Position numbers and translations under genes: made by a program. The notes under the pieces were generated by a model that saw nothing but the letters and a program-made list of their open reading frames with translations, made no database searches and had not been told where the DNA came from. Below are positions 12,820-16,148 of a stretch of 31,777 nucleotides of DNA, piece after piece. Every line of letters begins with the position of its first letter. The stretch's first letter is position 1. The stretch lies in contig JBIKWN010000027.1 of assembly GCA_044356295.1 (NCBI GenBank), positions 1 through 31,777 of the forward strand, given 5' to 3'. The DNA is from Bdellovibrionota bacterium. Its GTDB lineage: Bacteria; Bdellovibrionota_C; UBA2361; JBIKWN01.

Positions 12820-13224
12820 ATGAAAAATATCTCACTTATTTTTTTGCTTTGTACTATTTTTTCAGCATCAACTGTTTTTGCATTAACACCAACTCCGACT
12901 CCTACGCCCTCAGCTTGTCAAAATCTGCAAGCTTGTGTGTCATCTGGTGTATCTGCAACGCTTACAAGTTGTATAGCTGATAATTCAGCATGTACTTTTA
13001 AAAAGCCCGGAAAGTTTGCTGTAAGTGCTTCTGATCTTAGTGAACGTTCAATTGTAAGTTCTAAGTGTCGAAATAAAACTAAAAAATCTGCATGTAATCT
13101 TTGTTATAACCTAGCTAAGATACCTCTTAAGTCTAGATATGACGGGTCTCTCTTTCATGGATTATTAGCTCAAGCTGTATCAATCATCGAGTCTGAGCGT
13201 AAGTCTCGTTGTTCAGGTTTGTAG
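12820..13224 (+). CDS. Small secreted cysteine-rich protein
   Basis: RBS AGGA, Sec signal ending VFA, a TPTPTPTP linker, and 8 Cys in the mature region. Confidence 0.8.
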   Translation: MKNISLIFLLCTIFSASTVFALTPTPTPTPSACQNLQACVSSGVSATLTSCIADNSACTFKKPGKFAVSASDLSERSIVSSKCRNKTKKSACNLCYNLAKIPLKSRYDGSLFHGLLAQAVSIIESERKSRCSGL

Positions 13225-13406: not shown

Positions 13407-15866
13407 ATGACACCAACTTCAGGCGCCAATACAAGCACCAATTCAAAACGATCACCGCGGTCGCTTTCTGAGGTTACGATTGTTCTTGATGCAGGGCATG
13501 AACATAAAGATTCTGGTGCTGTTGTTAATGGTGTAAAAGAAGTCGATTTCACACGTAAACAAACTGCAGCTATAAAGAAAGAACTAGAGTCACGTGGATA
13601 TAAAGTAGTAATCGCTTCAGATCGATCAGTTGATAAGAATGGTGATGGAAGTGTTTCGAATGAAGAGCGAGCGCTTTTTGCCAATAAACACCCGAATCCT
13701 CTATTTATCAGTATTCATGCCGACTCGGGATTAAAAAACGGAACAACTCTGTATTATCCAACTGAAGTTGATGCTTCTGTTAATGCAAACAGTCAGTTCT
13801 GGGCATCTGGGATTGCTAAAGCTCTTGGTTCCTCACTGGGCACTGAAAATCAAACAGGCAAAGGTGCTAATGGTGGGCTTACGAAATCAAAAAATCTTAA
13901 ATCCGGAAGCGCAATATTCCATGTTGAAGTCCTTAATTTAAAAGATCCCACAGATAGAAAAAATGCGCAGTCGCAAGAATTTATTGATGGATTTGCAAAA
14001 CGATTTGTTGATGCTCTTGTTTCAACAGGTAGTGGAAACGTAGCACTTCCCAAAATTCCACGTTCTGATGTTCAAAAAGATAATAAAGAATCTAACAATG
14101 TTGATACTACTTCTTCAACTAGTCAGAGTGTCAGTTCAGGTATTGATCTAAGTGTTATTGCTTCAATCGGTGCAGGAAATTCCAGTTCATACATAAAAGC
14201 AGGAAAAACTGGTGTCGAAGTTGTTGAAGTAAAAAAACTTTTAAATACCTGGTTAAAACAACAAGGACGAAGTGAGTTAGTATTAACTCCTGATTGCGAT
14301 GCTGAAATGGTACGTGCAATCAAAGATTTTCAAAAACAAAGTGGCATATCAAAAGAATTAAAGCTTTTCACAAAAGGTGGCTTAGTTGTCGATGGAGTTG
14401 TTGGCCCTTGGACATTAACTGCTTTATTGAAAGCAAATGGAATTGAAGATCCTCAGGCTGCTCTTGCCCAATATAACGGTTCGAATTTTGATCTTGTTGC
14501 TGTTCTACAAAGCGTTCGTGGAGGAGTGTTTGTTGATTCGATTTCAGGTGAACCTGACTGGGATGCATTAGCAGATCTACAATTCAATAATAACCAAATA
14601 CCGGTCTCTGCTAATCCTTTAACTGATGCCGAGATTGCTTCACGTGATGCCCCTAAAGCTGTCAAAGATGCTCTTGATGAAACGTACCAAAAATTTAAAG
14701 ACTTTGATTATGGTTGGGGCGCTACTGGAGAAAATGGTCGTATTGATTGTTCAGCGTTTGTATCTTGGTATTTAAGGAGATTAGGCTTAAGAACTAAAGA
14801 TGGCAGTTGGAGACAAACTACTCTTGGGCTTATTGATGCTGAATCTGTATTTCCAGGACAAGTTAAAAAGATTGACCACAATGAACTGAGAGAAGGCGAT
14901 TTTATTGTTTGGGTTGGTCAAGGAGACAAAAGACATACTGGTGTTGTTGGACCTGACGGTATTATTTATCAATCTGCTTCAAAAATGGGCGGTGGAGGTG
15001 TGAATGACAATGTATCGGTTAGTTCATTTATCGCAACAGCTTCTAAATACAAACAATGGGCATGTTTTAGACCTATTGTTGCGGGCGAAGTAGTTGAAAG
15101 ACCAAGTAATCCAGTTTTTTCAGCAACCAATTTTCTTGATTCAAGCTCTGTAAATTTTAATGGAAAAACTTTTAGAGTTTCGTCTGAGTTTAAATCTAAT
15201 CTTGCATCTTCGACTGCAAAAGAAGAACTTGGAACAGAAGGTTTAATTGATTGGAATGCATCAGAGCCTGCTTGGGCAAGTTTGGGTATTATGCATGCAA
15301 CATGGGGTAAGGATGGAACATTTGCAGGTAATTCATTCTCAGATTTTATTGAATTTGCCAAAAAGAAAAATGCACCAGGAATACCTTCATTCTTAACTTC
15401 AAATAGCGCCAATCCTTGGGCGAGCCGTTCTGAGTTTTTATCTGCAAAGAGAAATAACGATCCGAGAATGGTTGAACTACAGCGATTCTTGGAAAATTCA
15501 GCTGAATTACAAACTGACTTTATGATAGCTCGATTTAATGGGTTTTTAGAAACACAAGCTCCAAAATTGAGTGCTGTAGGTAAAGAAAATTTATTAAAGT
15601 TGTTGCAGTCTGAGCAGGGGATTAAAGCTGCTATAATGTATGTTTCATTTAAAGGTGAAGGTACACCAGGTTCATCTACTTCGTGGGGGCTAAGCAATGT
15701 TCTCGAAAGAAATAATTTTGGAGCAAATCCTGTCGTTGCGTTTACCACTAATGCTAAAGCGGTACTTGAATCTAGGCATCCAAAGTATACCCAGTACGCG
15801 GGCGGTTGGACGCGTCGTCTGTCTGGATGGAATGTTAATCAATCTGAATTAGTCGCTACGACGTAG
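13407..15866 (+). CDS. Multidomain peptidoglycan hydrolase: Amidase_3, PG-binding, NlpC/P60 and an uncharacterised lysozyme-like domain
   Basis: Amidase residues LDAGH, E, ISIHAD and HVEV. PG-binding AIKDFQK...VDGVVGPWT. NlpC/P60 YGWGA...IDCSAFV...HTGVV. C-terminal WNASE..ASLGIMH..W, FKGEG, WGL and GWTRRL. Confidence 0.88.
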   Translation: MTPTSGANTSTNSKRSPRSLSEVTIVLDAGHEHKDSGAVVNGVKEVDFTRKQTAAIKKELESRGYKVVIASDRSVDKNGDGSVSNEERALFANKHPNPLFISIHADSGLKNGTTLYYPTEVDASVNANSQFWASGIAKALGSSLGTENQTGKGANGGLTKSKNLKSGSAIFHVEVLNLKDPTDRKNAQSQEFIDGFAKRFVDALVSTGSGNVALPKIPRSDVQKDNKESNNVDTTSSTSQSVSSGIDLSVIASIGAGNSSSYIKAGKTGVEVVEVKKLLNTWLKQQGRSELVLTPDCDAEMVRAIKDFQKQSGISKELKLFTKGGLVVDGVVGPWTLTALLKANGIEDPQAALAQYNGSNFDLVAVLQSVRGGVFVDSISGEPDWDALADLQFNNNQIPVSANPLTDAEIASRDAPKAVKDALDETYQKFKDFDYGWGATGENGRIDCSAFVSWYLRRLGLRTKDGSWRQTTLGLIDAESVFPGQVKKIDHNELREGDFIVWVGQGDKRHTGVVGPDGIIYQSASKMGGGGVNDNVSVSSFIATASKYKQWACFRPIVAGEVVERPSNPVFSATNFLDSSSVNFNGKTFRVSSEFKSNLASSTAKEELGTEGLIDWNASEPAWASLGIMHATWGKDGTFAGNSFSDFIEFAKKKNAPGIPSFLTSNSANPWASRSEFLSAKRNNDPRMVELQRFLENSAELQTDFMIARFNGFLETQAPKLSAVGKENLLKLLQSEQGIKAAIMYVSFKGEGTPGSSTSWGLSNVLERNNFGANPVVAFTTNAKAVLESRHPKYTQYAGGWTRRLSGWNVNQSELVATT

Positions 15867-16148
15867 TATGTTGTTGGTGTAGTTGAAGCTTCTTCTCAAC
15901 ATGTAAAATTCCTGCTTCGGTAAACTGCTCTCCAAACTCACAAAATCCAAGTTTTCTGTAAAATTCAGCTGCACTTACCTGCGCATTGAGTTTTATCTCT
16001 TTTATCCCTGACGCTTTGGCGTCTTCTATCATCGCTTTTGTTATCATAGCTCCAATTCCTGTGCCTCGAATAGATTTTCGAACAGAAGTGCCATATTAAG
16101 CTTTTGTTGATTTCTCGCAATAATTATACTGGGTTAATCTTGATTCAT
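15856..16148 (-). pseudogene. GNAT acetyltransferase (ElaA/YjcF-like) pseudogene
   Basis: ATG at 16148 is coupled to the marR stop. Reads MNQD*PSIIIARNQQKLNMAL, then changes frame into VRKSIRGTGIG...LNAQVSAAEFYRKLGF..GEQFTEAGILH. The central part is missing. Confidence 0.8.

Follow-up and report, generated by a model that had tools for sequence, protein, structure and literature searches.

Our analysis of a 31,777-nucleotide contig from a Bdellovibrionota bacterium (JBIKWN010000027.1, assembly GCA_044356295.1; this whole stretch is called the window) identified a single open reading frame (ORF) of 819 amino acids with an ATG start (13407..15866, + strand; P0001), hereafter the lysin, whose C-terminal domain belongs to a large, uncatalogued protein family without a model in the libraries searched. 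The explanation we favor, with a confidence somewhat above even for the whole of it, is that this ORF is real and intact and encodes a leaderless four-module cell-wall hydrolase uniting an amidase, a PG_binding_1 module, an NlpC/P60 peptidase, and a glycan hydrolase of the lysozyme superfamily. The open frame around the ORF comprises 821 codons, with two further codons open 5' of the ATG, and therefore leaves no room for a longer N-terminus or a hidden upstream start. The undescribed lysozyme-like family is the main value of the finding; the idea of three enzymes on one chain is already catalogued. The features of the ORF are as follows.

13407..15866, + strand: whole ORF, candidate leaderless four-module cell-wall hydrolase (translation, open frame)
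13479..14018, + strand: Amidase_3 (PF01520), zinc N-acetylmuramoyl-L-alanine amidase domain, residues 25-204 (Pfam E 1.3e-23; 84.3 bits against a cut-off of 27)
14079..14141, + strand: Ser/Thr/Asn-rich low-complexity linker, residues ~225-245 (translation; poorly conserved among homologues)
14238..14348, + strand: PG_binding_1 (PF01471) peptidoglycan-binding module, residues 278-314 for the Pfam core (24.1 bits against a cut-off of 23, marginal)
14706..14948, + strand: NlpC/P60 (PF00877) cysteine peptidase domain, residues 434-514 for the Pfam core (30.0 bits against a cut-off of 23)
15177..15851, + strand: C-terminal lysozyme-superfamily domain of an undescribed family, residues ~591-815 (AlphaFold2 model, structural matches, family searches)
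15225..15305, + strand: predicted catalytic segment with Glu607 closing the first helix, Glu620, Ser625-L-G-I-M-His630, Trp633, and the beta hairpin (family conservation, local hhalign to T4 lysozyme)

In the mechanism that we propose, the compact Amidase_3 domain would remove stem peptides from N-acetylmuramic acid (MurNAc), the NlpC/P60 Cys-His peptidase would cut within the stem peptide, and the C-terminal domain, judged from its structural model, is predicted to hydrolyze the beta-1,4 bonds of peptidoglycan glycan strands by an inverting mechanism. Should each of the three sites be functional, a single protein would cut all three bond classes, and it may be released, or exported by a non-Sec route, as a lytic enzyme. 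This scheme builds on the observed ORF, its domains and conserved residues, the fold, the size of the family, its mostly extracytoplasmic location elsewhere, its fusion partners, and the rarity of the architecture; the glycosidase chemistry and substrate, a constitutive amidase activity, and the route to the wall are its proposed steps.

The C-terminal query (P0002, about 260 amino acids, window 15081-15863; P0002 numbering plus 558 gives full-length numbering) contained every motif that the original prediction had read from the translation, namely WNASE (616-620), ASLGIMH (624-630), FKGEG (748-752), WGL, and GW..R. It had no match in Pfam (E<=1), NCBIfam, or PHROGs, and neither phmmer nor a 79-sequence profile retrieved a PDB sequence at E<=10. 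An exhaustive HMMER search of 1.84 billion cluster representatives (clusters at 50% identity) recovered 451 proteins at E<=1e-3, including 190 at E<=1e-10, and a word-index search added 22 further members. Among the 150 members listed of these 451, 116 were 360 amino acids or shorter, so that the family consists mostly of stand-alone small proteins, as the original prediction had described this domain. One family pattern run against GTDB contigs (one genome per species) gave at least 600 matches, 402 of which were confirmed by tblastn, placing the family in at least 402 species genomes. Most of the 80 loci kept were from Verrucomicrobiota, the others being from Leptotrichia, Chlamydiota, Obscuribacterales, Dependentiae, Elusimicrobiota, Campylobacterota, Alpha- and Gammaproteobacteria, and a Silvanigrellales metagenome-assembled genome. 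Five family genomes searched whole, among them a Dependentiae genome of 1.3 Mb, held one or two copies each; often, and even in that small genome, there is a single copy. A non-exhaustive literature search yielded no description of the C-terminal family, and the passages that it returned held no account of an architecture joining Amidase_3, PG_binding_1, NlpC/P60, and this C-terminal domain.

Structural comparison placed the domain in the neighborhood of lysozymes. The AlphaFold2 model, built from a 79-sequence alignment, reached a mean predicted local distance difference test score (pLDDT) of 86.5 and a predicted template modeling score (pTM) of 0.82; its first ~32 residues form a disordered linker, and one long helix, a beta hairpin, and a helical lobe follow in this order. 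When the model was compared by VIA-align with 48,161 PDB representative chains, the top ~15 rows were all of the lysozyme superfamily: the glycoside hydrolase family 46 (GH46) chitosanases 4olt_A (Z 10.6, 185 residues aligned, root mean square deviation 4.1), 7c6d_A (Z 10.5), and 1qgi_A (Z 8.9), then Brucella SagA (7dnp_A; Z 8.8), Vibrio cholerae VgrG3-C (4nso_A; Z 7.2), and a group comprising NMB1012, pesticin, T4-lysozyme fusions, a GH24 muramidase, and MltE (Z 6.1-6.6). A Z below 8 may reflect a common arrangement; here the three top rows exceed 8, and the list is uniform. Foldseek against the PDB, which together with AlphaFold was among the checks suggested in the original prediction, filled its first eight rows with GH46 chitosanases (prob 0.98-0.66). 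The nearest named cluster in the ESM Atlas was Glyco_hydro_46 (score 0.88), to be taken as a lead, and a BFVD fold search returned nothing at E<=0.001, its best rows being phage endolysin/glycoside-hydrolase proteins at E 0.035-0.2. A lysozyme-like two-lobe alpha+beta fold is thus supported for the C-terminal domain by modeling. Of the earlier claim that the last domain is a lysozyme-fold glycosidase, the fold was upheld by the AlphaFold2 model, VIA-align, Foldseek, and the motif described below, whereas the glycosidase activity remains a prediction.

Conservation, counted over the non-gap entries of 176 domain rows from P0002-P0174, outlined a candidate active site. Glu49 (Glu607 in the lysin) was conserved in 172/172 rows, Glu62 (Glu620) in 170/172, Ser67 (Ser625) in 172/172, and His72 (His630) in 174/174, while Trp58 and Trp75 were conserved in all. 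In the model, Glu607 ends the first helix, Glu620, 13 residues further on, precedes the hairpin, and Ser625, five residues after Glu620, lies in the first strand of the hairpin. Alignment with hhalign laid the family motif W-N-x-G-E-x-F-x-S-L-G-I-G-H-F on T4 lysozyme 15-34 (L-K-I-Y-K-D-T-E-G-Y-Y-T-I-G-I-G-H-L), pairing Ser67 with Thr26 and G-I-G-H with G-I-G-H (probability 6%), and a profile-profile run against 22 T4-type lysozymes laid the C-terminal F...W...G-W-x-x-R on T4 113-155, pairing Arg246 with Arg145 (probability 16%); both matches were colinear and consistent with the fold. The catalytic residues of T4 lysozyme are Glu11, Asp20, and Thr26. In the N174 chitosanase CsnN174, Glu22 is the acid, Asp40 the base, and Thr45 the water-orienting residue, according to excerpts of its description (PMC3848431). 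On the modeled structure, Glu607 of the lysin is predicted to be the general acid and Glu620 the general base.

The hydrophobic N-termini, transmembrane (TM) placement, and fusion and operon partners of family members indicate that the family acts outside the cytoplasm, in association with enzymes and binders of peptidoglycan. A crude Kyte-Doolittle test found a hydrophobic signal-like N-terminus in 88/116 short members versus 1/116 for control residues 61-105, and several of the 28 short members without a hydrophobic start were clearly N-terminal fragments. A Pfam scan of 37 members (all 34 longer than 360 amino acids among those listed, plus three short ones) gave these partners.

Amidase_3: 4/37 (P0004, P0007, P0018, P0028)
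GH3 N-terminal domain (NagZ-like): 8/37
Protein kinase (Pkinase): 4/37
PP2C: 1/37
LysM: 2/37
TPR: 3/37
Branch-type glycosyltransferase: 1/37
No Pfam domain: 14/37

A TM segment was predicted between the cytoplasmic domain and the lysozyme-like domain in 5/5 kinase/PP2C fusions. In these proteins (P0047, P0071, P0084, P0133, and P0019), four Ser/Thr kinases and one PP2C phosphatase, the domain, with intact Glu/Glu/Ser/His, makes up the C-terminal, extracytoplasmic portion, which may be a PASTA-like wall-sensing arrangement. Leaderless, highly charged, and probably disordered N-termini, with the family domain close to them, were seen in P0006 (1658 amino acids), P0012 (1539 amino acids), P0018 (1143 amino acids), P0021, and P0022; the remainder of these five proteins matched no Pfam or PHROG family except for Amidase_3 at the end of P0018, and PHROG scans of P0006, P0012, P0018, and P0010 gave no matches. 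In Verrucomicrobiota of the Udaeobacter type, an overlapping same-strand gene for a YkuD L,D-transpeptidase lay 3' of the family gene at 4/4 loci scanned (L012:3734-5241, L014:3656-5273, L020:3668-5241, and L032:3209-5273). This pairing is an operon specific to the lineage and connects the family with cross-link remodeling; the neighbors of the family gene in other lineages were heterogeneous. A convergent CinA gene followed YkuD at 2/2 Udaeobacter-type loci scanned.

Two alternative roles turn on these partners. The C-terminal domain could be a true chitosanase-like enzyme acting on a polymer other than peptidoglycan, such as a glucosamine (GlcN)-rich exopolysaccharide or chitosan, in keeping with the GH46 chitosanases as its closest structures and with the large glycosyltransferase and polysaccharide-export cluster in the window (about 16.6 to 27 kb). 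Every informative fusion or operon partner, however, is a peptidoglycan enzyme or binder (Amidase_3, NlpC/P60, LysM, PG_binding_1, GH3, YkuD), and a genome of the same genus (G002) retains the glycosyltransferase cluster without the lysin gene; we regard this role as very unlikely. Cytoplasmic muropeptide recycling, in which imported anhydro-muropeptides would be dismantled by the amidase, a gamma-D-Glu-diaminopimelate peptidase, and the glycosidase, would suit both the GH3 (NagZ-like) fusions in 8/37 members and the lack of an export signal in the four four-module members with readable N-termini. We hold it to be highly improbable: 5/8 GH3 fusions have a hydrophobic signal-like start, the rest of the family is overwhelmingly extracytoplasmic, PG_binding_1 suits a polymeric wall, and nearly all relatives lack the gene, which would not be so for a core recycling pathway.

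The three modules ahead of the C-terminal domain were found much as first described. An Amidase_3 domain with intact residues had been placed at about 13470-14020, and the Pfam match (13479-14018) spans profile positions 1-172 of 174 in a compact 180 residues, with His31 (D-A-G-H), Glu45, His104 (S-I-H-A-D), and Glu174 invariant in 3/3 full-length homologues; from the AmiB, AmiC, and CwlV structures, we take His31, Glu45, and His104 to be the zinc ligands and Glu174 to be catalytic. The other Amidase_3 of the same genome occupies 213 residues over the same profile range, versus 180 in the lysin, which is without the ~30-residue insertion of this longer domain. In amidases of the AmiA/B/C type, the auto-inhibitory helix sits in such an insertion, and because the insertion is missing, we infer from the sequence that the lysin amidase is of an unregulated, CwlD/phage-like type, removing stem peptides from MurNAc. 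The Ser/Thr linker, the peptidoglycan-binding domain, and an NlpC/P60 domain with Cys and His had likewise been foreseen and were recovered at residues ~225-245 and as Pfam matches. The marginal PG_binding_1 call is supported by P0004, which also matches PF01471 (31.2 bits). Cys448 and His510 of NlpC/P60 were invariant in 3/3 full-length homologues; the third triad position is Gln522 in the lysin, as had been noted, Glu in P0004, and Leu in P0007 (with Glu two residues later), and the Pfam match stops at profile position 71 of 105, short of Gln522.

A further Amidase_3 arrangement was observed at G000:C22:968-4858 (L099:968-4858, + strand), where a 1296-amino-acid frame, uninterrupted by a stop codon, runs from a complete MutS (domains I, III, IV, and V) through a hydrophobic signal/TM-like segment into a full Amidase_3 (residues 1077-1289). 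G002 has a similar 1291-amino-acid frame; either MutS and the amidase are fused via a membrane segment, or the amidase has a gene of its own that starts in-frame inside the end of mutS.

The four-module architecture is rare, in agreement with the view that it is not that of a common annotated autolysin. Three other representatives of the 37 scanned join the domain to an amidase and a papain-type peptidase: P0004 (53% identical overall to the lysin, same module order, NlpC/P60), P0007 (42% identical, same module order, with a peptidase match to CHAP and not NLPC_P60), and P0028, in which the order is NlpC/P60, Amidase_3, and the lysozyme-like domain. A word-index search among proteins of 450-1434 amino acids returned the query and P0004 only. 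Pattern searches confirmed 0/58 matches for the whole lysin in genome contigs, and, in metagenome contigs, 0/377 for the three-homologue alignment and 0/98 for P0004. Against 41 related genomes, the whole protein had a true orthologue only in G001, a genome of the same genus, and weak amidase-level matches elsewhere; the G001 orthologue shares 68% identity over residues 15-411 and is truncated where its contig ends, because of which it cannot show the C-terminal domain. A family profile found the domain in 1/91 genomes of the order and 1/124 of the phylum (1/73 of good quality), the single genome being the window's own in both cases. In G002 (86% complete), bamA is followed by a 115-amino-acid ORF, an ABC-ATPase fragment, and the same glycosyltransferase cluster, and the secreted ORF, lysin, GNAT remnant, and MarR of the window are absent from this locus. 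Given the single occurrence among 124 phylum genomes and the absence from G002, the lysin gene is accessory and lies in a variable segment, and it was probably acquired horizontally from outside the phylum.

The 24 neighboring ORFs scanned with Pfam included BamA, an orphan secreted ORF, a GNAT remnant, MarR, an ABC-2 exporter, glycosyltransferases, flagellin, housekeeping genes, and a distant rve integrase (696-1487), the sole mobile-element gene among them. Two of these ORFs flank the lysin gene.

12820..13224, + strand: orphan 134-amino-acid Cys-rich ORF with a signal peptide, 5' of the lysin, between bamA and the lysin (no Pfam family)
15856..16047, - strand: 63-amino-acid GNAT acetyltransferase remnant, C-terminal part only, convergent with the lysin (Acetyltransf_10 positions 73-125 of 128)

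The secreted ORF, which has a (Thr-Pro)4 stretch and many cysteines, found no match as a query in G001 or G002, the two other genomes of the genus. An effector-immunity pair formed by the lysin and this ORF was considered and dropped, the ORF being an orphan that is not upstream of the G001 orthologue; the gene 5' of that orthologue is a different, divergent one without a Pfam family. The GNAT remnant overlaps the lysin ORF end by 11 nucleotides and marks a rearrangement. Only 97 nucleotides separate it from the MarR end, so that its N-terminal ~70 residues are missing.

How the lysin reaches its substrate bears on its role. No N-terminal hydrophobic segment or TM segment was predicted in it (maximum 12-residue Kyte-Doolittle value in the first 45 amino acids, 1.05), and no signal peptide was present in 4/4 four-module members with readable N-termini (the lysin, the G001 orthologue, P0004, and P0007), as had been stated for the lysin itself. 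TssC/VipB (PF05943), the sheath protein of a type VI secretion system (T6SS), was not found in the 93.6%-complete genome, with a positive Escherichia coli control and other T6SS genes not searched, and no T6SS-related Pfam family occurred among the 24 neighbors. The suggestion of a predation or antagonism effector in the original prediction received no support: no T6SS sheath gene or conserved immunity-like neighbor was found, and the domain is absent from the other 123 phylum genomes searched. Our best guess is that the lysin gets out through a non-Sec route or when the cell lyses, and then attacks other cells or the wall of its producer.

A leaderless lysin might instead be the endolysin-type enzyme of a degraded or unrecognized mobile element (prophage or tailocin), held in the cytoplasm until holin action or lysis and without a role in predation or competition. 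Canonical endolysins are leaderless in the same way; the best PHROG match of the lysin is the endolysin family phrog_435 (8.6e-20), its NlpC/P60 part matches phage tail lysins, and the gene is accessory, in a variable segment, and adjoined by the truncated GNAT gene. Yet none of the 24 neighbors is a phage structural, holin, or spanin-like gene, matching the earlier remark that no phage or holin gene lay nearby; two family patterns run against IMG/VR turned up no relative of the C-terminal domain (0/36 matches of the family alignment confirmed), the BFVD structural matches were weak (best E 0.035), and the G001 orthologue adjoins a different gene that is not phage-like. We consider an endolysin origin of this kind unlikely.

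Several observations weigh against our favored explanation of a three-activity hydrolase and have to be set beside the evidence for it. At the sequence level, no GH46, GH24, or other lysozyme Pfam family matched the lysin at E<=1: PF01374 (GH46) found nothing in the lysin at this threshold nor anywhere in the genome, with a positive Bacillus subtilis control, and PF00959 (GH24, T4-type lysozyme) had no match in the lysin. The hhalign links to known lysozymes are weak (6% and 16%), and the equivalence of Glu607, Glu620, and Ser625 to the T4 and GH46 sites rests on motif spacing and secondary structure. Every named family match is a 'hypothetical protein' without a precomputed Pfam domain or any experimental or curated annotation, and, along with the IMG/VR result above, tblastn of the domain against plasmids gave no match with the queries used. 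At the structural level, the Foldseek matches are weak (best E 0.017; TM 0.38-0.44), the low TM values being expected because the two-lobe fold is hinged. This copy departs from the family at Asp186, which is Asp in 169/171 non-gap rows and Met744 in the lysin (P0004 and P0007 retain Asp there, in I-D-Y-V-N-F-K-G-E-G), and at the near-invariant Asn189 (Ser) and Asn48 (Glu). In GH46, an Arg-Asp-Arg network from the other lobe supports the acid catalyst, as described in excerpts of PMC3848431; if Asp186 plays the analogous part, its loss to Met744 may weaken or cripple catalysis in this copy. The third NlpC/P60 triad residue is not conserved across homologues, the outward-facing position on Ser/Thr kinases would suit a ligand sensor no less than an enzyme, and no export signal, holin, T6SS sheath, or conserved partner gene was found that would account for access to the wall.

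These points bear most directly on a bifunctional alternative, in which the lysin would be an amidase and endopeptidase only, its C-terminal domain serving here as a non-catalytic glycan-binding or targeting module, or the whole family binding or sensing peptidoglycan fragments. The Met and Ser substitutions for Asp186 and Asn189, the sensor-like position of the domain on four Ser/Thr kinases and one PP2C phosphatase among the 37 scanned, and the uniform 'hypothetical protein' labels speak for it. The Glu/Glu/Ser/His set, on the other hand, is kept in this copy and in essentially every member and lies, by motif spacing and secondary structure, where T4 lysozyme and GH46 enzymes put their catalytic residues; the majority of members, being small secreted proteins on their own, have no partner domain to which they could signal; and the lysin already carries a dedicated PG_binding_1 module. 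We therefore rate the bifunctional alternative as rather unlikely, although with an inactive domain the lysin would be an ordinary bifunctional hydrolase.

If the family is active, it would add a widespread, uncatalogued member to the small set of peptidoglycan glycosidase families and would explain the outer domains of some bacterial Ser/Thr kinases and NagZ-like enzymes. The lysin would then be a compact natural combination of amidase, endopeptidase, and glycosidase without the usual amidase auto-inhibition, of interest as an enzybiotic scaffold, and it raises the question of how, in a diderm bacterium, a wall hydrolase without a leader gains access to its substrate. Drawing all of this together, we advance as a tentative possibility, and a doubtful one as a package, that the domain represents a new peptidoglycan glycoside-hydrolase family, possibly preferring de-N-acetylated, chitosan-like glycan. 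In many bacteria of the Planctomycetota-Verrucomicrobiota-Chlamydiota (PVC) group, Fusobacteriota, Melainabacteria, Dependentiae, and others, it would serve in the periplasm as an enzyme present in one copy, in some cases linked to L,D-transpeptidases, NagZ-like enzymes, or Ser/Thr kinases; this genus of a Bdellovibrio-like lineage would have joined it to an endopeptidase and an unregulated amidase, giving a leaderless 'all-bonds' lysin sent by a non-Sec route against other cells.

Among known systems, the GH46 chitosanases (Streptomyces N174 CsnN174, 1CHK/4OLT; Bacillus circulans MH-K1, 1QGI; B. subtilis, 7C6D) are the best structural matches, with 185-197 residues aligned. Their two-lobe fold recurs in the model of the C-terminal domain, and the domain has predicted counterparts of their general-acid Glu, which closes the first helix, and of their second carboxylate, which precedes a Ser/Thr by five residues (in CsnN174, Asp40/Thr45, from excerpts of PMC3848431). 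The domain differs in falling outside PF01374, in an identity of 11-12% in the structural alignments, in a second carboxylate that is Glu and not Asp and lies 13 and not 18 residues after the first, and in partners that point to peptidoglycan and not chitosan. T4 lysozyme and GH24 enzymes (structural Z about 5-6) resemble it in the S/T-[IL]-G-I-G-H hairpin motif, in the Glu at the helix end, and in the spacing of Glu620 to Ser625, which recalls Asp20/Thr26; the C-terminal domain is ~60 residues larger, and its second acid aligns with T4 lysozyme Glu22 and not Asp20. The Brucella muramidase SagA (7DNP) and the V. cholerae peptidoglycan hydrolase VgrG3-C (4NSO/4NOO), lysozyme-superfamily wall hydrolases of diderm bacteria, stand high in the structural list but have no detected sequence similarity to the lysin domain. 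VgrG3-C, likewise without a leader, is an effector that travels on a secretion machine, whereas here no T6SS sheath gene and no conserved immunity-like neighbor was found.

Multifunctional wall hydrolases offer the closest parallel to the lysin as a whole, with several wall-cutting activities and a binding module on one chain, although the glycosidase-like module of the lysin is in no catalogued family. CwlT reportedly carries a lysozyme and an NlpC/P60 domain on one chain. Hydrolases that combine amidase, glycosidase, and peptidase form a named class, 'CWA-CWG-CWP', in the review of Vermassen et al. (2019; PMC6403190), where an excerpt of Table 1 gives only GHF-73 as an extra catalytic partner of Amidase_3. 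TseP (PMC11893102), reportedly a T6SS amidase-lysozyme chimera with dual hydrolase activity, is leaderless like the lysin. In Bdellovibrio bacteriovorus, DslA is a lysozyme specific for de-N-acetylated peptidoglycan that destroys the prey wall, according to portions of its report (PMC7511926); it is a diversified lysozyme of a Bdellovibrio-type bacterium, as the lysin may be, and a chitosanase-like cleft would suit GlcN-containing glycan, whereas the lysin domain was not found in the other 123 phylum genomes searched. The notion of amidase, glycosidase, and peptidase on one polypeptide is thus already known. In fold and probable chemistry, the C-terminal domain would work like an inverting GH46/GH24-type hydrolase while being, in sequence, a member of neither family; what is new is this glycosidase-like module, its union with an unregulated-looking Amidase_3 and NlpC/P60, and the conserved lack of a leader.

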